Origin: Candidatus Binatia bacterium
GTDB lineage: Bacteria; Desulfobacterota; Binatia; UBA9968; JAJDTQ01
NCBI GenBank assembly: GCA_963664535.1
Contig: OY761465.1
Coordinates: 3,565,178-3,629,177, forward strand
DNA: 64,000 nucleotides
Direction: 5' to 3'
Shown here piece after piece: positions 15,147 through 62,486 of the stretch. Numbering within the stretch: position 1 is the first letter of the stretch; the number at the start of each line of letters is the position of its first letter. Below the pieces are notes generated by a model. It did no database searches, was not told the DNA's origin, and saw nothing but the letters and a program-made list of their open reading frames with translations. The position numbers and the translations under genes were made by a program.

Positions 15147-15404
15147 ATGTCGGAGCAGGACAGGACGCATGACGACAAGAGCTTCGAGGAATGTCTTCGG
15201 GCCCTCGAAGCCGTGGTGGAACGCATCGAGAGCGGAGAACTGAACCTCGAAGAGTCGCTGGCGACCTTCGAAGAGGGAGTGGGGCTGGTCCAGTCCTGCA
15301 ACCGCAAGCTGAGCGAGGTCGAGCGCCGGATCGAGGTGCTGACCAAGGACCCGGACGGCCGCCCCAGGCTGCAGGAATGGACGGAGGAGGAGTCTCCCGA
15401 CTAG
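15147..15404 (+). CDS. xseB: exodeoxyribonuclease VII small subunit
   Basis: 85 aa, FEECLRALEAVVERIESGELNLEESLATFEEGVGLVQSC, the typical XseB sequence. Confidence 0.85.
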   Translation: MSEQDRTHDDKSFEECLRALEAVVERIESGELNLEESLATFEEGVGLVQSCNRKLSEVERRIEVLTKDPDGRPRLQEWTEEESPD

Positions 15405-49462: not shown

Positions 49463-50683
49463 TTGATTTGCCGCCCTCGATACACAAGAGCAACTGAGAC
49501 GATTGGACGAACCTTGGAGCGTGAACCCCCAAAACCCAATAGTGTACTTCGAAGCTCCCTGGAACTTCCCTGTGGCGCGATCCTGAAAAATCGACTGGCA
49601 AAGTCAGCCATGTCGGATTCGCTTGGGAACGGCGAAGGTGATCCCACCGAGGCTCAGATCCGACTCTACGAAAGATGGGCGGAAGGCGGAGTCGCCGTGT
49701 CGATCATTGGTGAGGTTCAAGGTGATCCTCGCTATCCGGAGAAGCCTGGAAATCTGGTGTTCGGAGCACACACCGATCGGCAGGCGATGAAGTCCCTGGT
49801 CAGCCGTGCCACGATCGAGGGCGCTCATGTTTGGCCGCAACTCGGTCATGCCGGTGCTCTTTCGCACCTGCCGATCAGTCGGCCGAAAGGGCCGTCGGCG
49901 CTGGATATCCAAGGTCTTCAATGTGCAGGAATGTCAGTCCAGGACGTTCAGGAACTACCTAGCATGTACGCAAGGACCGCGGCCTATGCAAAGAACGCAG
50001 GATTTGGCGGCGTTCATGTTCACGCCGGGCACGGATTTCTGCTCAGTCAATTCCTGTCGCCATTGTTCAACCGCCGGGACGACGGTTACGGCGGTTCGAT
50101 CGAGGCACGATGCCGAATAGTGCTCGAAGTGATCGACGAAGTGCGCCGTGCGGTCGGTCGGCCGTTTCCCGTCGGGATCAAGATCAACTCGACGGACAAA
50201 CTGGAAGGCGGATTGACAGAGGCTGATGCTTTGGAGGTGGTCCGCCTTCTCGATCGAACCTCGGTCGATCTAATCGACATCAGCGGCGGGACCTATTTCC
50301 CCGGAGCGAAGGCAAGCTCCGAGGGGTCGTCGAACGACGGACCCTGTTTTCTTGAGTTTGCCAGACGCGCCAAAGAGGTAACCGATGTGCCGCTAATGTT
50401 GACGGGAGGCTTTGAACGGCGTGAGCAGGGGGTGGATGCGGTGGCTGGCGGTGCTGTCGACATGGTGAGTTTGGCGCGTGCCATGGTTCTTGAGCCGCGG
50501 CTCGCGGAGGTCTGGTTGACCGAGGAAGGTGGTGATCCCGAGTTTCCGATATTCGAATCCCCGCCCCGGGAAATGGGTCGTCAGTTTGTCAGCGGTATTG
50601 CGCGTCGGACTGCTAGCACCTTGTCTTGGCTGAGACACCGTTCCCTTCACACTAAGGATAACACGGAAATTCTAAGAAGCTGA
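49463..50683 (+). CDS. Old Yellow Enzyme-family NADH:flavin oxidoreductase (start uncertain; possible upstream TTG)
   Basis: LKNRLAKSAM...HVHAGHGFLLSQFLSPLFNRRDDGYGGSIEARCR...GGF motif pattern of the OYE/2,4-dienoyl-CoA reductase FMN domain. GC content drops to about 55% from here. Confidence 0.8.
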   Translation: MICRPRYTRATETIGRTLEREPPKPNSVLRSSLELPCGAILKNRLAKSAMSDSLGNGEGDPTEAQIRLYERWAEGGVAVSIIGEVQGDPRYPEKPGNLVFGAHTDRQAMKSLVSRATIEGAHVWPQLGHAGALSHLPISRPKGPSALDIQGLQCAGMSVQDVQELPSMYARTAAYAKNAGFGGVHVHAGHGFLLSQFLSPLFNRRDDGYGGSIEARCRIVLEVIDEVRRAVGRPFPVGIKINSTDKLEGGLTEADALEVVRLLDRTSVDLIDISGGTYFPGAKASSEGSSNDGPCFLEFARRAKEVTDVPLMLTGGFERREQGVDAVAGGAVDMVSLARAMVLEPRLAEVWLTEEGGDPEFPIFESPPREMGRQFVSGIARRTASTLSWLRHRSLHTKDNTEILRS

Positions 50684-51258
50684 TAACTGCCGGCGATTTC
50701 TAGACTAAGGCCAGTGGCATCCTTCTCCGCGGCCAACGTTTCTGCCCGCTCCGTGGCTGGATCGAGATTGATTTGGCGGGTGTGAGCCTCGAGTCCCTCC
50801 AATTCAGCCCTCTGTCCGCTGAGGTCTTTGAGAGCACGCCATACCTGTTGACCCGTTCTTGGCGGAAGCGTTCGGAAATCAATCCCGAAGTCGCGAAGAA
50901 GGTGTTCGACAGACTTCTCCGGGATGTTTTCCATCAACTGGCGGTAGGAAACGTCCGAGACCCGAACGAAGTTGGTTAGGGTCAGATGACGTTGAGCCGT
51001 TGTGACTTTGCGCCCAGAATCGGCGATACAAGCGTAAAGTGAACCCCAGATCCCGCGATCGATGTATTCGTACCCGATCACCTGAATCAGGCAGAGTTGC
51101 TTCTTGATCGTTTGGCCGACAACGTAGGGAATCGCATATGAGAAATGACGTCCCGCAGAGACAACCTCTTCAAGGTAATCCAACGTATCCTCAGGGTAGA
51201 CGTCCAAGACGCAGGAAACGCGTGCATCACTGTCCGCTGGTTGAACGCTAGATGACAT
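50647..51258 (-). CDS. hypothetical protein (203 aa) translationally overlapping the PIN gene
   Basis: The start overlaps the PIN stop by 11 nt. It has a C-terminal coiled-coil-like region. No recognisable family. Confidence 0.5.
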   Translation of the reverse strand: MSSSVQPADSDARVSCVLDVYPEDTLDYLEEVVSAGRHFSYAIPYVVGQTIKKQLCLIQVIGYEYIDRGIWGSLYACIADSGRKVTTAQRHLTLTNFVRVSDVSYRQLMENIPEKSVEHLLRDFGIDFRTLPPRTGQQVWRALKDLSGQRAELEGLEAHTRQINLDPATERAETLAAEKDATGLSLEIAGSYQLLRISVLSLV

Positions 51259-51817
51259 CCTTGTGATTCCAAAGAACTGAGGCCGTTCGAGCGAGCCCCA
51301 GTCTCTCGAGCGCGGTTAGATGTTCCATGGATGACCGCGGAGGGTTCCTCAATGCGGCACGATGGCCGCGGACGGCGGCAAGAACGGCTTTGGGCTGAGA
51401 TTCAAGAAGACCGCCAATGAAGTCATCGGGATGTTGTGCTTCCAGCCCATGTGGTGCCAGCCGGTCCGCGGGAAAATCCCGCAGGTTGAGGGTCACGATT
51501 ACGCTGGCACAACCGTGGATCGCCGCCGCCAGAACATGGCGGTCGTGGACATCAGGGAGGTCGAGTTCCGCGATGAGAGTTTCGTAACCGGAAACGACCG
51601 CCTCGGGAAAGTGCTCGTCCATGATCGAACGGGTGCGCTCCAGCCTGGCGACTGTGAGATCGGGCCGGTCGGCGAGAAGGTTGGCGATCCATTCTTCATG
51701 AATCGCGATGCTCCAAAGCGGTTGGTACAAGTATTGATCCGCCAGGCGCAGAAGAAAGTCTCGAAGGCCACCGGGATACAGGACGTTGGCGTCGAGTAAC
51801 GCCGTCAATCGGTTCAT
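51248..51817 (-). CDS. PIN-domain nuclease (type II toxin, TIGR00305-like)
   Basis: MNRLTALLDANVLYPGGLRDFLLRLA...VHDRHVLAAAIHGCASVIVTLNLRDFP has the acidic PIN signature residues (D9, D/H...). Confidence 0.7.
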   Translation of the reverse strand: MNRLTALLDANVLYPGGLRDFLLRLADQYLYQPLWSIAIHEEWIANLLADRPDLTVARLERTRSIMDEHFPEAVVSGYETLIAELDLPDVHDRHVLAAAIHGCASVIVTLNLRDFPADRLAPHGLEAQHPDDFIGGLLESQPKAVLAAVRGHRAALRNPPRSSMEHLTALERLGLARTASVLWNHKDVI

Positions 51818-51820
51818 CGG

Positions 51821-52294
51821 CTATTGCAAGCCGAGTTTCTGATCCTGGGCAGTCAACTCGTCCAGCGCATCTCGGCGACGAGACTCCGTATCCCGACGAT
51901 AGGCGAGAATGTCTTCGGTCCGCACACGCCGATGTGAGCCGACCTTACGGCATGGGATTCGTCCCTCGTCGAGCAACCGTACCAGGAACGTCCTCGAAAC
52001 CTGCAGGAGATCGGCCGCTTGCCGTGTGGTCAACTCGGCCTGAACCGGTGTCAACGCAACTGTATTGCCACGCGCCATCTGATCCAGAATCTCGCGCAGA
52101 AGCCGTAGCGCTTGGACGGGAATCTCGACCGTTTCCTCGCCGGCCGCGCCAAATCGAACCGGAACCGGCTCAGTCCCATCCGGCAACTCTGCCAGTTTCC
52201 TGCCGATATGGTCGGCAAGAAATGCGTCCCGGCCGCTCGCAAACCCAGTCTCTCCGTCCTTCATGGCTCGATTTCCCATTGGCACCGCCTCCAT
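51821..52294 (-). CDS. excisionase-family HTH (HTH_17/MerR-like) DNA-binding protein, putative antitoxin
   Basis: LTTRQAADLLQVSRTFLVRLLDEGRIPCRKVGSHRRVRTEDILAY is the excisionase-family HTH. Its stop lies 3 nt before the PIN start. Confidence 0.65.
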   Translation of the reverse strand: MEAVPMGNRAMKDGETGFASGRDAFLADHIGRKLAELPDGTEPVPVRFGAAGEETVEIPVQALRLLREILDQMARGNTVALTPVQAELTTRQAADLLQVSRTFLVRLLDEGRIPCRKVGSHRRVRTEDILAYRRDTESRRRDALDELTAQDQKLGLQ

Positions 52295-53030
52295 TTCGAC
52301 AACGGCAATACTTACTCAACTAACATAAATACCATATTCGCTGCAAACGACACGTTTCAGGCTCCCATAGGTCTAGGAGTCTGCGCCGTAGAAAAATGTC
52401 GTGGGACAAAGCCCCACATTCGCACCAAAATCGCACCCATCATGGGACACGCAACCAAATTGCCGCCACTTTGGACGGAAACTTGGTCGTGCGATCCCGC
52501 CGTCCACGTCCAGAAGCGTTCTGCAGCGCAGACTCCTAGGTCACTTGAACTGTTCCCCTTGAATGGTGTGTCCTTCTTAACCTTCTTTCCGTGCCATTAA
52601 ACACAGAGAGGAGGGAGTCGTGGTCCGGCTGGGACACAGCCGAAAGGCAGTCCCAAACGAGACGCGGCTGACGAGGTAGCAGTCTATCGCTGGCGGATTG
52701 GATCAAGGATGTGGCGCTGGAGCATCCGGCCTAGGCAACCGACCGGAAACGATAGCAATGTTTGAGGGCCGGCGTGTGTCGTGGATGGCGATCCGAAGAT
52801 TCTCAACGACAGCGGCCCGGGCCCACGCCCGGGTCGCGGCCGACGCTGGAGAAGTGGACCGCGGACATGCACTGGAGTTGACTGCGGAGAGAGGCGGTGT
52901 TTCCCGAGAAGTTCAATCCGTGAAGTAGCGCGCGCGAGCACCCCAACAGTCGGTGAGTCGCAGCCGAGCAAAACTTGTCCGTTGCACGCGAACAGTACTG
53001 AGCGATCCTACCACCGACAGTGGTGCCGTG

Positions 53031-56000
53031 TTAACTCCGAAGCCTCTTGGCGATCTTCGCTCTCGAATCTTGCCAGTTGGCATCGTGGTCGTAGGTAACG
53101 GCAATATCCTCGAGGATTCCACCGACGTAAGGATAGTCGAAGTGGAGCTGCTCGGCCCAAGCACGATATCTTGCGGCGAGCTCCCGCTCCTGCTGGCCCC
53201 CTTCGCCCCGCCAGTGAACGCCGCGAGAGTTGCAAGCACCGATGACGAGTCCTCTGCCGATCTCCGAGGACGCTACCTCCTCCATTGCCTCGCAGACTGC
53301 TTTGCACGGCCATAAGCCGTCTTCGTCCTTGGGCGCCTTGGCAAGGAGTTGACCGAGCCAAAGATCGCCAGCCTCGACGCGGCCGTACTCGCGACAAAGG
53401 CGCCGCACCCCATCAAGCCACTTTGATAGTGCCACCGCGTCAATTTTACCGTTCTCGTCTTTGCCGGGAATCACTTCCAATCGATCGAGAAGGCGATAGG
53501 CTGCCCTTCTGACTGAAGCTCGCTGTTCTGGGTCTTCGACCAGCCATTCCGGCGGGTCTTCTTCTTCGTCACTTCGCTCGTATGTGAGGGCAATCGCCTG
53601 GACGAACGATATCGGTGACTGCGCAATCATGCGTTCGAGATTCGGAATCCCGTGCTTGCTGTGATCGAGGACATCGATGTAGAGGAATTCCAATTCAGCC
53701 ATTTCACCACGGGTGATACCCGCACGACCATCAAGCACCTCGAATGCTTCGGAAATAAAGTGCCCGTCGATCTTGAAATGGCCTGCTGGTTCGGCGTTGC
53801 CCGTGGCGACGTCACGCAGCAGCCGCTTGAGGCGGGACGTCTCGACATGCTCAATATTCATGTGGACGGCGCGGAAAGCTGCGCGTGGCCGGGCAGCGTC
53901 CAGAAGGCCATCCATGAGTTCGGAGAGTTCGGCGGGCGTGTGTCGGTGGCAGACAGGGTACACTTGCTTCCAGTATCCAACGCGGATGTCCTCTCCTTCA
54001 CCGTCGAGCAGACGCCACGTCGAGTCTCGGAACGGCGCATTTACAAACAGGCGCGTACGTTCGTCGGGGGGCATTACTCTGGCTGCGGCCTGTAGCACCT
54101 TGGTGCGAGAGTCGTCTTCAATGGCCCAAAGGGCACCCTGTAGACACGACTCGGCTTCATCTCGAAGGTCTTCATCAAGAGAAAGGCAGCGCCGGATGAA
54201 CTCAACTCGTTCATCAACGTTGGGAACGCACGATATCGCATATTGGCCAACCGTGTGGGCGGCACCGGTGGCAGTCAGCAGTTCCTTGACACCTTCGAAA
54301 CCATACTCTGCCCAGATGTCGTTCATCGCTTCCCGGCGCAGCCTGTCGATACGGTCGTCGCGTTTTTGCCAGTCGAAGTCCTCGTCATCGAATTCGTCAG
54401 CGGATTCCTGTACCCACTGATTGGCGAACAGCCAACGATGCCGGGCAACCGGATCTTGGGGTTGGAGTTTTTCGTAGGTCTCCCGCGCGCGGTCGCGGGC
54501 TGTTTCTCCGATCTTCAGGTGGCGGGCACGCCGGGTGAGGGCAAACCGTCTGATGCGTTCGCGTAACGCGGCCTTGGCAGATTCGCTGGCGTTAATGGAC
54601 CATCCGTCGATCAAATCCCAGACCTTGGTCTGTTCGTCCTCGGGAATGCCTTCGAGTGATTCGACGAGGTCGCCAAGAGTCGTTTCATCGTGGGACGGCC
54701 ACGCGACTATGAGGTCTAGCGCCTCTCGAGTGAAGTGATGAAGTTCCTTGTAAGTGACTACCTGCCCGGCCCCGGAGGCGTCACTACGCCAACGGGGCCT
54801 GTAGCTGTCGTGCCCGAACCGTGGACCGCGCTTGATTTGCTCGATACAGATCTCCCAACCGACATTGGGAAAATTCCTGACGAGCGCTTTCAACGCTTTG
54901 ATCCTCTGTTCCAATGTCGCTGCTGTCTGTGGCATCCAAGATCTGAAAATGGCCTGCAGGCTGGCGTCCGGTTTGTTAACCCAGTTGTCGTCGATTTCTT
55001 GCCTGGAAAGGCGAGCGAGGATTTTGGTTACCCGCGAGAGGTTGCTGGGGTTCCATGCAAGGCACTCCATGGCCCAGAGCAGACCAGTCCGTGAAGGAGA
55101 CAAGAATATCGAGCCGCTGTCGACCGGCTTGAGAAGGCCGAAGACCACGGGTTCGTCTTGGCGTAGGTCACCTTCGATGATCTTTAGGAATTCGTCGGGT
55201 GCGGCCTCTGCAAAGTACGGCAGGTTTTGGTCGTGCGAGAGCAGCTTCTCAAGTGCCAAAGGCGTCAAGAGTTTAAGGATCAGACCAGAAACTCTGGCTT
55301 CAGCATCGAGCCCGATACGGTCCCGGAGCAGGTTGTTTCCATGTACTGACAGGATCACGAGTGTCTCGCAGATTCCCTTACGTAGAGCGTCGGAGTGCTC
55401 ATGGGTCTTGTCATAAAACACTGCAGCCCACCTGTCGTCTTCCGGCAGGTCAAGGGCAGGATCAGTCTCGGAAAGCACAATTGCGGCGGCGGAGAAGAAC
55501 CGATCGAGGTCTGCTGGTGTGATCATCCTGGCAATAGCGAACAAAGCATCGATTTTTGAGACGACCCCCCGGTGGCTACCGGCGGACCACGCTGGGCTGT
55601 CATCGAGCTGAAGCAAGGGCATGACGTTACCTTCGACCGCCTCGTATTTCCGATCCGCCACATAGGCCAATATCTTGCGGTCCGCTTCCCGCTTAGTGTT
55701 CCAGGCTCCGATCAGGGCCATAGGTACGAGGGCTTTCGCGGTATCGTCATCGCCTGCCCAGACCGGCGTTCTGATCGCGGCGTTCTTTGAGAGGCGGCGA
55801 CGAAGGATTGTCGGCGAGCAACCGGATTCCCTTGCCAGCCGATCCATTTGGTCCCGTGCAACTCCGGCGGCATTTAGGGCCTTCCTAAAGGCCTCATGAC
55901 CGAGAAGATCAAGTGTGATATCCGCATTAACATTCACGTCATTGCGAGGTCGGAAAACGATGCCGTGAAGTCGGCGATAGGCGTCGGCAAGCTCGCGCTC

Positions 56001-57098
56001 GACATCCTCGGAGACAACGATCGGAATGAACGGTACTGACGACGAAATCAGAGTTCGAAGAGTCGGAGGAGATGTGAAAATCGCGGTAAGGTCTTTGGAT
56101 TGATGGAACTCTTGCACATCAAACAGGCAAGCAAGGAAGGCGAGTGCTTCGTCCCGTGAGTCAGCCGAGACGACAAATGGCTTGTTGCTCGGGTTGGTGA
56201 GCCACTTCTTGAAAGTGCCTTGGTACGCTGCGATCGAAGGTGCGAAGATTTCGGGTGTCAGATGTGGCTCGCTGGCATTCGCCCATCGATTCCATGCTTG
56301 CTCAAGAGTCTCGTACCCGTTGACCGGCAATCCAACTTGCTCGGCAAACCAGATCTGCGCTGGCACGGACTGCTCCAGCCACTGCTCGATGTCGCTCGCA
56401 TCGAATACTCTGACTGCCTTCCAGTCTCCAGCCTCATTTTTCAGTTTTTCCCAAGTCGTCTTGCCTGCCCAGTTGCGGGGGGTGACAAAAACGAAGGTGC
56501 TCTTGGCACGTTCGGGGCGGCCAACCGAGATCAGGCGGGAGGAATAGTCGTTCTCTGCTTTGACACGGGACTCTTTGTTGGTGCCGAACTCCCAATGGGA
56601 CAGCCCTTCGGGAACCCAGGGGGTGGCGGCGGACGCTTCGACAAAACCATCGTCGCCTTTGCGTTGGGCGTTGTCGTAACCGGGGAAGTCGACCCTGAGA
56701 AGTCCGTTGCCCGTTGATTGCACCAACTTTCGCAGCAACACGGGTAGGTGAGTGCGCGCATCAATTTGGCCGGCCCAATCCTCGATCTGTCTTGCGGTGA
56801 TGGTCAGGAAACTGGGCACGAAGGCGCGTACCGCGACGGCCCTTTCCCCAACCTGTCGCTCTTGCAGGTCGTGCGCTGACTGCATGTCCAGCAGTCTCTG
56901 ACGGTCGGCGCCAAACGCCTTCTCCAATCTGACCGCCATCTCCGGGGACAGGGCAGATCTCCCGTTTAGGAAGTTCGACAGCGCTGGGCGGCCTATGCCG
57001 AGTCGGTTGGCCGCGTCTTTGACTGTCATGCCAGACGGAATGACGTTTTGCCGGACAAAGGTGCCTGGATGCTGGTGTAAATCCGGATGAGCTTTCAT
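53031..57098 (-). CDS. 1355-aa protein: N-terminal HigA/XRE-type HTH domain fused to a ~1250-aa region of unknown function
   Basis: N-terminal MTVKDAANRLGIGRPALSNFLNGRSALSPEMAVRLEKAFG is a HigA-family antidote HTH. The rest has no recognisable P-loop, nuclease or protease motif. It is a single long ORF in a lower-GC island. Confidence 0.7.
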   Translation of the reverse strand: MKAHPDLHQHPGTFVRQNVIPSGMTVKDAANRLGIGRPALSNFLNGRSALSPEMAVRLEKAFGADRQRLLDMQSAHDLQERQVGERAVAVRAFVPSFLTITARQIEDWAGQIDARTHLPVLLRKLVQSTGNGLLRVDFPGYDNAQRKGDDGFVEASAATPWVPEGLSHWEFGTNKESRVKAENDYSSRLISVGRPERAKSTFVFVTPRNWAGKTTWEKLKNEAGDWKAVRVFDASDIEQWLEQSVPAQIWFAEQVGLPVNGYETLEQAWNRWANASEPHLTPEIFAPSIAAYQGTFKKWLTNPSNKPFVVSADSRDEALAFLACLFDVQEFHQSKDLTAIFTSPPTLRTLISSSVPFIPIVVSEDVERELADAYRRLHGIVFRPRNDVNVNADITLDLLGHEAFRKALNAAGVARDQMDRLARESGCSPTILRRRLSKNAAIRTPVWAGDDDTAKALVPMALIGAWNTKREADRKILAYVADRKYEAVEGNVMPLLQLDDSPAWSAGSHRGVVSKIDALFAIARMITPADLDRFFSAAAIVLSETDPALDLPEDDRWAAVFYDKTHEHSDALRKGICETLVILSVHGNNLLRDRIGLDAEARVSGLILKLLTPLALEKLLSHDQNLPYFAEAAPDEFLKIIEGDLRQDEPVVFGLLKPVDSGSIFLSPSRTGLLWAMECLAWNPSNLSRVTKILARLSRQEIDDNWVNKPDASLQAIFRSWMPQTAATLEQRIKALKALVRNFPNVGWEICIEQIKRGPRFGHDSYRPRWRSDASGAGQVVTYKELHHFTREALDLIVAWPSHDETTLGDLVESLEGIPEDEQTKVWDLIDGWSINASESAKAALRERIRRFALTRRARHLKIGETARDRARETYEKLQPQDPVARHRWLFANQWVQESADEFDDEDFDWQKRDDRIDRLRREAMNDIWAEYGFEGVKELLTATGAAHTVGQYAISCVPNVDERVEFIRRCLSLDEDLRDEAESCLQGALWAIEDDSRTKVLQAAARVMPPDERTRLFVNAPFRDSTWRLLDGEGEDIRVGYWKQVYPVCHRHTPAELSELMDGLLDAARPRAAFRAVHMNIEHVETSRLKRLLRDVATGNAEPAGHFKIDGHFISEAFEVLDGRAGITRGEMAELEFLYIDVLDHSKHGIPNLERMIAQSPISFVQAIALTYERSDEEEDPPEWLVEDPEQRASVRRAAYRLLDRLEVIPGKDENGKIDAVALSKWLDGVRRLCREYGRVEAGDLWLGQLLAKAPKDEDGLWPCKAVCEAMEEVASSEIGRGLVIGACNSRGVHWRGEGGQQERELAARYRAWAEQLHFDYPYVGGILEDIAVTYDHDANWQDSRAKIAKRLRS

Positions 57099-57550
57099 TG
57101 TGTTGCCTCCCCTAAACTGGCCGATTCCTAATAAGCTACATTAGCGTGTAGCGCGATACGCAACACAATGCAGTCGCTTGTCTCGAATTTCTGGAAACTG
57201 ACGCAGCCACGCCACCGAGAAGGCCTACGTGCTTCAGCGGCGCTGTTCCCTTTGGTGGCTAGCCAGTGGTGCCGGAGCAACAGATTCGTCGACGCGGTTG
57301 ATCTCGTATGCTAGGTAGACTTGGATGCGCATGTCCGAAAAGCGGAGCCACTACCGGGGCCAAAATTGAGTTTCCAGAACGTCGTTGTTGGGAGTCCGGG
57401 GGGTACCTAGACAGAGGACGGAGCGACAGAGCCGCGTTGCAGCGCGCACAGACCAGAGTGAATCTGCTTACGATATGCTTACGACAAGGACCACGGCGCT
57501 CAGCGATCCACAGTTCATGATCCAATAAATGACAAGTATATCAAATAGTT

Positions 57551-62262: not shown

Positions 62263-62486
62263 CGTTCCCACTCACTTCTCCGTCATCCCCACTCACCTCT
62301 CCGTCATTCCCACTTACCTCTCCGTCATTCCCACTTACCTCTCCGTCATTCCCACTTACTTTTCCGTCATTCCCGCGGAAGCGGGAATCCAGGAAGAGTG
62401 CGGCGGGTGAACAGACTCGTTACAGCGCCTCCCCACCCCTGGATTCCCGCTTCCGCGGGAATGACGGAGAAGTGAGCGGGAATGAC
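62261..62486. repeat. composite palindromic repeat: 5 tandem 21-bp units (CGTCATTCCCACTYACYTCTC), a REP unit, a 32-bp spacer, an inverted REP unit and an inverted 21-bp unit
   Basis: Units at 62261, 62281, 62302, 62323 and 62344. REP 62365-62400. Inverted REP 62433-62465. gagaagtgagcgggaatgacg at 62466-62486 is the reverse complement of the 21-mer. The array lies between convergent genes. Confidence 0.6.

Follow-up and report, generated by a model that had tools for sequence, protein, structure and literature searches.

A large protein with a HigA-type head from Candidatus Binatia belongs to a sister family of Avs8A and is a candidate autoregulated antiphage sensor-nuclease

The stretch of Candidatus Binatia DNA analyzed here (64,000 nucleotides, to be referred to as the window) carries on its minus strand a gene for a protein of 1355 residues, with a helix-turn-helix (HTH) head of the HigA type on a very large body. 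Profile comparison places the protein in a widespread family related to the antiphage protein Avs8A. The protein is probably an autoregulated, nucleotide-independent, single-protein antiphage sensor-nuclease of the Avs8 lineage. The gene and the regions of its product are located as follows.

53031–57098, minus strand: complete gene, 1355 codons and the stop codon (53031–53033), from the list of open reading frames (ORFs), the translation and full-length homologs
56844–57098, minus strand: HigA/Xre-type HTH head, residues 1–85, presumed autorepressor, from TIGR02607, HTH_3 and the HigA, YbaQ and VapI structures
56331–56801, minus strand: restriction-endonuclease-fold domain (PD-(D/E)xK, Mrr/FokI-like), residues ~100–256, presumed effector
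56547–56651, minus strand: candidate active-site residues D150 (start of β2), E170 (β3), and K180 and D184 (next helix), from conservation and DSSP
55563–56255, minus strand: NOD-like module, residues ~282–512, with an AAA+/STAND-like α/β domain, a helical lid and a winged helix, and without functional Walker motifs
56142–56165, minus strand: degenerate Walker A segment, A312-D-S-R-D-E317-A318-L, opposite G-A-S-G-L-G-K-S of Avs8A in the hhalign register
53034–55562, minus strand: HEAT/ARM-like α-solenoid, residues 513–1355, presumed trigger-binding sensor
54879–55223, minus strand: residues 626–740, the stretch directly matching the PADLOC PD-Lambda-4_A profiles (E 7.4e-6 for the query)

The ORF begins with ATG and is uninterrupted over 1355 codons, as had been described in an earlier reading of this DNA (the sequence-only reading), which omitted the strand. 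The same reading assigned the N-terminal segment to the HigA family, and this assignment holds. Residues 9–80 match TIGR02607 (antidote_HigA) with 59.7 bits, above the cut-off of 47.7, the head is also matched by Pfam HTH_3, and in a comparison with PDB sequences the solved structures of HigA, YbaQ and VapI match residues 1–85 alone. In the numbering used here, the peptide TVKDAANRLGIGRPALSNFLNGRSALSPEMAVRLEKAFG quoted in that reading corresponds to residues 25–63. The head accounts for 6% of the protein, which is thus not a stand-alone HigA of ~100 residues.

For residues 86–1355, protein and profile searches find zero matches in Pfam, NCBIfam or the PDB sequences, and the bodies of 35 divergent relatives are equally unmatched in the same three libraries. 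When the nuclease and NOD-like segments of four divergent members are searched in isolation, Pfam finds nothing at E ≤ 10. The body had been called unrecognizable, which is correct for simple sequence searches but not for structure and profile comparisons, where its homology to Avs8A (PD-lambda-4 A) becomes apparent.

PD-lambda-4 is now named Avs8, and Avs8A consists of an Mrr nuclease, a P-loop nucleoside triphosphatase (NTPase) and a tandem-repeat sensor (PMC12236752, PMC13581612). On binding HK97-fold major capsid proteins, Avs8A degrades double-stranded DNA; Avs8B is dispensable (PMC12236752, PMC13581612). The PADLOC model PD-Lambda-4_A is matched by 20 of 35 diverse members of the family, with a best E of 1.4e-8. 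The PADLOC profiles cover just ~105 residues, at ~22 bits, and standard annotation therefore misses the family.

A full-length PD-Lambda-4_A homolog encoded beside a Rhizobium relative served as the stand-in for Avs8A, rather than a published Avs8A sequence. This neighbor of a family member on a Rhizobium plasmid matches PD-Lambda-4_A with an E of 8e-66 over profile positions 3–1271 of 1283. When it is compared as a single sequence with the family profile in hhalign, the probability is 97.5% (E 5.9e-12, 723 columns), and a profile of 32 Avs8A-like sequences raises it to 99.05% (E 2.2e-18, 986 columns). The profile alignment spans family columns 99–1178 and Avs8A-like columns 3–1140 of 1294, with an identity of ~17%. 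Judged from these alignments, the family is homologous to Avs8A and co-linear with it after removal of the 85-residue head, and so distant a match indicates a sister family rather than Avs8A proper.

On two different rhizobial plasmids (L008, 6656–14683; L095, 5716–13676), a member whose head has been exchanged for an HTH resembling the controller (C) proteins of restriction-modification (R-M) systems is found in tandem with an Avs8A-like gene that has intact Walker motifs. R. gallicum is among the hosts of this tandem pairing. The pair in L008 is preceded by a gene of the RHE_PE00001 family.

Structural models of the body were built with AlphaFold2 from an alignment of 61 sequences (34–87% identity), and the column counts given below refer to the same 61 sequences. 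The models have pLDDT and pTM values of 92.8 and 0.88 for residues 84–480, and 91.2 and 0.80 for residues 440–1355. From the N to the C terminus, the body contains a restriction-endonuclease-fold domain, a NOD-like (AAA+/STAND) module with a winged helix, and an α-solenoid of ~840 residues, which is HEAT-like by structure comparison. The top fold matches of the first domain are the nuclease domains of FokI, N.BspD6I, MspJI, AspBHI and LlaBIII, and the α-β-β-β-α-β core of the PD-(D/E)xK superfamily is present. The NOD-like module matches CED-4, Apaf-1, ZAR1, Avs4, Avs5 and RFC. Its nucleotide-binding domain, helical domain and winged helix follow one another as in STAND proteins, and an N-terminal effector and a C-terminal repeat sensor, the layout of such proteins, flank it.

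Two short motifs pointed out in the sequence-only reading are not borne out. The possible HEPN-like Rx6H (RAWAEQLH, residues 1312–1319) is not conserved, with R1312 in 33/61 sequences and H1319 outside the five commonest residues at its position. A HEPN identity is rejected, since no HEPN structure is found among the fold matches either. The AGKTT (residues 211–215), which had been taken for a degenerate P-loop, is located in the nuclease domain (T214 in 14/61, G212 in 31/61) and is rejected as a P-loop. The true P-loop equivalent is A312–L319.

The same reading had found no P-loop in the protein, and this is borne out for the family. In the Avs8A-like profile, G256, S258, G259 and K262 of Walker A and D316 and E317 of Walker B are invariant. 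The segment aligned with Walker A here reads A-D-S-x-x-E-A-L, with A312 in 54, S314 in 57 and E317 in all 61 sequences, and with Ala (36) or Gly (19) at position 318. A Lys residue is found in this segment in 0/61 sequences, and relatives with 26–28% identity share the Lys-less reading A-D-S-x-x-E-A. The Walker B motif, hhhhD[DE], is missing too, the 'DE' of Avs8A falling opposite a gap or V362-S363 in hhalign. Acidic residues beyond this point are partly conserved (position 365 is acidic in 47/61, E367 is present in 50/61). By these alignments, the NOD fold is retained and its NTPase chemistry is lost across the family. Because the whole family is without Walker A and Walker B, signaling would proceed without ATP.

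The nuclease domain also differs from that of Avs8A in its signature. The Mrr signature D-G-G-x-D...Q-x-K is invariant in Avs8A-like proteins, and the family reads G-W-D150-G and W-E170-F-G172 instead. D150 is located directly before the strand of residues 151–155 and E170 is on the strand of residues 165–171, as assigned by DSSP in the model. Two positions after E170, residue 172 is Gly or Ser, never the Lys of (D/E/Q)xK, and the invariant K180 is on the following helix. R123, D150, K180 and D184 are each conserved in 61/61 sequences and E170 in 60/61, and all five residues are kept in relatives with 26–28% identity. The invariance of D150, E170, K180 and D184 makes nuclease activity plausible.

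The N-terminal parts of the protein appear to be exchangeable. In a relative from Shewanella, everything beyond the start of the winged helix is retained (hhalign 99.4%, E 1.4e-21), while the ~290 residues at its N terminus are different and include 'TDDLIVFVEN...LLGQVK', which can be read as a D...QxK nuclease signature and hence as a putative effector swap. A constant sensor with swapped heads and effectors is typical of immune receptors.

The promoter region indicates how the gene may be controlled. Its elements, and the unit with which they have been transferred, are given below.

57106–57112, minus strand: ribosome-binding site GGGGAGG, 7 nucleotides ahead of the ATG, from the sequence
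57138–57168, minus strand: putative σ70 promoter around the operator, with −35 TTGTGT (57163–57168) and −10 TAATGT (57138–57143), from the sequence and relatives
57146–57159, minus strand: operator, window copy GTATCGCGCTACAC, two mismatches from GTGTAGCGCTACAC (62/82 loci against 0/567 controls, see below)
53009–57339, minus strand: horizontally transferred unit, consisting of the gene, 241 nucleotides upstream (promoter and operator) and 22 nucleotides downstream, from blastn against locus L036

In relatives from many phyla, a 14-bp palindrome, GTGTAGCGCTACAC or more generally GTGTA(A/G)CG(C/T)TACAC, is located 20–115 nucleotides ahead of the start codon. The upstream windows (160 nucleotides) of 82 loci with a HigA-type head were scanned for it, together with 567 control windows within genes. 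The best match per locus has 0, 1, 2, 3, 4 and 5 mismatches in 17, 21, 24, 10, 7 and 3 loci, respectively. At two mismatches or fewer, a site is present in 62 of the 82 loci and in 0 of the 567 controls, only 2 of which reach three mismatches. In the entire window there is one such site, GTATCGCGCTACAC before the gene. The operator fills the 17-nucleotide spacer between the −35 and −10 elements (TTGACA/TTGTAT to TACACT/TACAAT) in most relatives, as in L028, TTGACA-t-GTGTAGCGTTACAC-aa-TACACT. In the copy of E. coli HS the operator is GTGTAACGTCACAC, followed by TACATA, and some loci have a second operator copy just downstream. An additional half-site, GTGTTGC, is found in the window at 57160–57166.

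Relatives with another head, Xre or C-protein-like (Rhizobium, Thalassospira), have only background matches with at least 5 mismatches. The same is true of the head-less relatives (Adhaeribacter, Shewanella OS117, and two Latescibacteria with ~62% identity in the body); the two groups are represented by loci L008, L009, L011, L093, L016 and L017. A palindrome in the promoter spacer that is present with the HigA head and absent with another head or none indicates autorepression, and the head very probably shuts off its own promoter. The arrangement is as expected for autorepression by a dimeric HTH, which would bind the site. The sequence-only reading had proposed a self-regulating sensor/effector with an antitoxin-type DNA-binding head, and an operator in the gene's own promoter that co-occurs only with this head fits that proposal well.

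A perfect 11-nucleotide inverted repeat, CATTGTGTTGC and GCAACACAATG (57096–57106 and 57160–57170), has its arms over the start codon and the −35 region and is also present in L036. A hairpin in the mRNA was considered for this repeat and rejected, because the upstream arm lies beyond the putative −10 element and would not be transcribed from this promoter. A simpler reading is that the arms provide additional operator half-sites, GTGTTGC and GCAACAC.

The gene appears to have no partner. A HigB gene was not found near it, and the sole upstream ORF on the same strand (57259–57525, 88 residues) has no family match. Among 2,887 flanking ORFs from 73 loci, the largest cluster is found in 4 of the 73 loci. 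A conserved partner gene is rejected by this clustering, and a gene with no flanking cluster in more than 4 of 73 loci is without an obligate partner. The absence of a HigB toxin upstream, which had been noted from the sequence, is thereby confirmed.

The closest relative, from a Ca. Binatia metagenome-assembled genome (L036, 91% protein identity), is 91.8% identical by blastn over 53009–57339, with unrelated flanks, and the homology ends inside the 88-residue upstream ORF. The GC content of the gene is pulled toward 0.58 (standard deviation 0.049, compared to 0.078 for the flanks), exceeding that of the host where the host is GC-poor and falling below it where the host is GC-rich. Relatives are found in 128 plasmid records. 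The span, GC and plasmid data together indicate a horizontally mobile single-gene cassette. No integrase, tRNA or convincing direct repeats are found at the borders of the island that holds the gene in the window, and the 9-kb region of the window has no near-identical plasmid match.

The family is large. A word-indexed search finds 2,811 homologs, the best 120 of which have 1,285–1,394 residues (mostly ~1,356) and 67–100% identity, and include proteins from Paenibacillus, Paraburkholderia, Syntrophobacteraceae, Alphaproteobacteria and others. When the body is searched exhaustively on its own, 6,725 cluster representatives (50% identity) are found at E ≤ 1e-3, and 2,827 at E ≤ 1e-30. Relatives are present in no fewer than 591 species genomes, which belong to over ten phyla, and conservation is even over the full length of the protein. 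Among 5,426 complete E. coli genomes, 10 carry the gene. In the phage collection searched, the family is all but missing, with a single partial match on an unannotated 6.6-kb contig.

Taken together, these observations suggest how the protein may work. The C-terminal solenoid of ~840 residues would be the sensor and, by analogy with Avs8A, may wrap around a conserved phage protein. The NOD-like module and the winged helix would relay the signal without ATP, probably through a conformational change or oligomerization. The N-terminal restriction-endonuclease-fold domain would be the effector, cleaving DNA once activated. A dimer of the HigA-type head on the 14-bp palindrome between the −35 and −10 elements would hold this potentially toxic protein at a low level, and the gene, promoter and operator would move between phyla as a portable cassette. 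A bolder proposal, offered only tentatively and with a rather small chance of being right, is that the entire lineage has replaced nucleotide control by transcriptional self-repression. The resting dimer would be tethered to the operator, and the trigger would free both the nuclease and the promoter, giving a feed-forward burst of the receptor. If this is true, it would mean nucleotide-independent NOD signaling on a cassette that works across phyla.

Several points weigh against an antiphage sensor-nuclease of this kind. The canonical Mrr motif DGGxD...QxK is not literally kept, the QxK strand of Avs8A faces a gap in hhalign, and the Lys would have to come from the K180 helix; an inactive or altered nuclease is therefore conceivable. 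For a NOD module that would signal without nucleotide, the one precedent found is a figure-legend remark that the Walker motifs of KpAvs8 are degenerate (PMC13581612). The window operator is a weaker copy, with 2 mismatches and a spacer of 19 nucleotides, and because of this spacer the assignment of the promoter hexamers in the window is putative. The identity between Firmicutes and Proteobacteria proteins is ~70%, and the sensor is thus unusually conserved for an immune receptor. Many neighbors are housekeeping genes, so the defense-island signal is only moderate. Finally, no paper was found that describes the family or its member in E. coli HS.

Other explanations have to be weighed against an Avs8-type sensor-nuclease. 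That the ORF is an annotation or assembly artefact, with a small higA frameshift-fused to a downstream large gene, is virtually impossible. The sole pointer to it is a size that is odd for a 'HigA', and the same length of ~1,356 residues and the same head–body junction recur in thousands of homologs from many phyla, independent assemblies and complete genomes. A frameshifted two-gene locus, which the sequence-only reading had left as an option, is ruled out because near-full-length homologs of this constant length abound. The protein could also be a selfish addiction module in a single polypeptide, in which a nuclease 'toxin' is fused to a HigA-like 'antitoxin/repressor' and a regulatory body, stabilizing plasmids and islands with no phage sensing. 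The bona fide HigA-family HTH, the self-standing movement of a cassette with its own promoter and operator, the frequent location on plasmids and beside toxin-antitoxin (TA) pairs (PIN/HTH_17 in the window, PIN/Phd in L001–L004, PIN and HigA in E. coli HS), and a conservation that suits a selfish element more than an arms-race receptor would all agree with this. Partners fused in cis have no differential stability, however, and therefore offer no obvious post-segregational killing; the 840-residue solenoid homologous to the Avs8A sensor would be left unexplained, and the body is retained in relatives with another head or none. An addiction module is thus unlikely.

It is also improbable that the protein is a transcription factor of the MalT/LAL type, a STAND protein that responds to a ligand or protein through its HTH, with the nuclease fold as a relic or an extra DNA-binding surface. 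Among the functional elements, the HTH and its conserved operator have the strongest support, the canonical QxK Lys is missing, and the dead NTPase shows that catalytic motifs have decayed in this lineage. The five residues R123, D150, E170, K180 and D184, invariant down to 26% identity, argue instead for a working site. No regulon is visible, since operators were seen nowhere but before the gene, both in the window and at every locus inspected; a relative with no head cannot regulate through one, and the closest characterized homolog is a nuclease effector (PMC12236752). The folds closest to the nuclease domain (FokI, N.BspD6I, MspJI, AspBHI, LlaBIII), together with R-M genes among the neighbors, bring to mind a DNA-reading, restriction-like enzyme, either type IIS/FokI-like or modification-dependent and type IV-like, with recognition by the HTH and/or the solenoid and cleavage by the FokI/Mrr-like domain. 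Such an enzyme is very unlikely here, as the apparent target of the HTH lies in the promoter of the gene itself, there is no conserved methyltransferase partner, and the body is homologous to the protein-sensing Avs8A sensor rather than to a target-recognition domain.

In the window, the gene is located in a low-GC island of ~8 kb (~49.2–57.5 kb; GC 0.56–0.60, compared to 0.66–0.72 in the flanks). Hydantoinase A/B genes are found on its upstream side, and downstream of it are the PIN/HTH_17 pair, an ORF of 203 residues and an OYE-type NADH:flavin oxidoreductase (49463–50683). The segments 51248–52294 (minus strand) and 50647–51258 contain an HTH_17/excisionase-type gene (157 residues), followed by a PIN_3 gene (189 residues) and then by the overlapping 203-residue ORF. 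The HTH_17 gene also matches the PADLOC mad1 model, and the 203-residue ORF has no family match. The PIN_3 and HTH_17 genes are likely to form a TA pair. PIN genes also adjoin relatives in L001–L004, there together with Phd, and in E. coli HS. The 730-nucleotide non-coding stretch between the HTH_17 gene and the 1355-residue gene holds a 21-nucleotide inverted repeat (52373–52393 and 52519–52539, 90% complementary, arms 125 nucleotides apart) and three terminator-like hairpins (52400–52478). Further away, at 62265–62374, the 21-nucleotide unit TTCCCACTTACCTCTCCGTCA is repeated in 5.2 tandem copies (93% matches) between dienelactone-hydrolase-like and amidase-like ORFs.

The nearest neighbors in 57 loci include type I R-M subunits, GmrSD, Schlafen/AlbA_2, TOTE primase, integrases and transposases, in addition to housekeeping genes. 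Plasmid contexts combine Abi, SIR2, two RES-Xre pairs and AbiEii; Abi and SieB; or AbiEi/AbiEii. In L036 (10069–16068), the last 81 nucleotides of the gene are duplicated 5.2 kb downstream (15290–15369). The repeats bracket a stand-alone HigA gene and a type IIG restriction-methylase of the Eco57I/MmeI type (1140 residues), followed by an IS256-type transposase, and the arrangement looks like a cassette inserted at the 3′ end of the gene. The E. coli HS copy (L094, NC_009800.1, 2653015–2668291) is the last gene, at the cargo end, of an element of ~15 kb integrated beside guaA. This element also has a tyrosine integrase, two IS1 copies, RepA and remnants of TraJ/TrbJ/TrbL, a 185-residue 'HigA' gene and a gene for a 335-residue PIN-domain protein. 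On the Buttiauxella plasmid pBTX_57 (L092), a relative is apparently truncated or disrupted beside a group II intron reverse transcriptase, with a match limited to residues ~409–1340 and split over two annotated ORFs. In L001–L004, which are related to Syntrophobacteraceae (L001, 12283–13620), the gene is followed by one for a 445-residue protein that has a DACNV 'probable sensor' domain and weakly matches DisA-type diadenylate cyclases.

Members of the family are named 'HigA family addiction module antitoxin', 'helix-turn-helix transcriptional regulator' or 'hypothetical protein' in the databases. Thousands of entries with the first two names are thus candidates for Avs8-related sensor-nucleases of ~150 kDa, and the misnaming touches both the annotation of defense systems and the counts of TA systems. 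With a NOD fold that is kept and an invariant Glu in a Lys-less P-loop, the family is a natural test of the role of the NTPase in NLR-like receptors. The promoter-embedded operator, conserved from Paenibacillus to Paraburkholderia and E. coli, makes up a compact and portable autoregulatory unit, a rare case in which the regulation of a defense gene can be read straight from the sequence. The member in E. coli HS, a tractable commensal (ECHS_RS13060, WP_000128902.1), puts the questions of NTPase, operator and function within experimental reach.

The family can be compared with several known systems. It shares with HigA antitoxins and R-M controller proteins a palindromic operator within its own promoter. 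Its head is a true HigA-family HTH, and the head of the rhizobial clade matches the PADLOC R-M model 'Control_protein'. Unlike HigA, the protein is not a stand-alone one of ~100 residues and has no HigB or other toxin partner. On the Sphingobium plasmid pCFD-2-1 (L010, 7968–11151), a stand-alone HigA-family gene is located directly upstream of genes for an N-6 DNA methylase and a BsuBI/PstI restriction endonuclease, so that a HigA-type HTH occupies the position of an R-M controller protein. In STAND regulators of the MalT/LAL type, too, a single polypeptide unites a NOD-type module and a helical sensor with an HTH. These regulators differ in having the HTH (LuxR-type) at the C terminus, in requiring ATP binding and in lacking a nuclease domain.

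Other Avs and bacterial NLR-like STAND sensors (Avs1–5, Avs7, Avs10–21, bNACHT) follow the same logic of effector, NOD and repeat sensor, with interchangeable N-terminal effectors and, in Avs4 and Avs5, a similar fold of the central module. They have an active or recognizable P-loop NTPase and mostly TPR-like sensors, whereas this family has lost the NTPase motifs and has a HEAT-like sensor. In PADLOC scans of the query and 35 members, no sequence-profile match to another Avs was found beyond PD-Lambda-4_A. Upx, a STAND-less, terminase-sensing nuclease, is likewise a large single-protein defense sensor with a PD-(D/E)xK nuclease and works without an NTPase (bioRxiv 10.64898/2026.04.30.721860). 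The sensor of Upx is N-terminal and its nuclease C-terminal, the reverse of the order here; it senses by β-augmentation, compared to an all-α body in this family, and no homology was detected.

The closest likeness is to Avs8A. The order of domains is the same, from an Mrr/restriction-endonuclease-fold nuclease through a NOD-type module and a winged helix to a large helical sensor, and the lengths are comparable (~1,280 residues for Avs8A, 1,270 for the family after the head). Both are single-protein systems, Avs8B being dispensable (PMC12236752), both are highly conserved and horizontally spread, and both are sometimes encoded in tandem. On the other hand, GxSGxGKS and hhhhDE are invariant in Avs8A-like proteins, and the family has neither Walker A nor Walker B; the Mrr motif DGGxD...QxK has given way to the invariant D150, E170, K180 and D184; and the family has an additional N-terminal HTH with a cognate operator. 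The layout and ancestry of the family are those of Avs8A, and it is therefore not categorically new. What is distinct is the dead NOD, the altered nuclease signature, and the autorepressor head with its portable promoter-operator.

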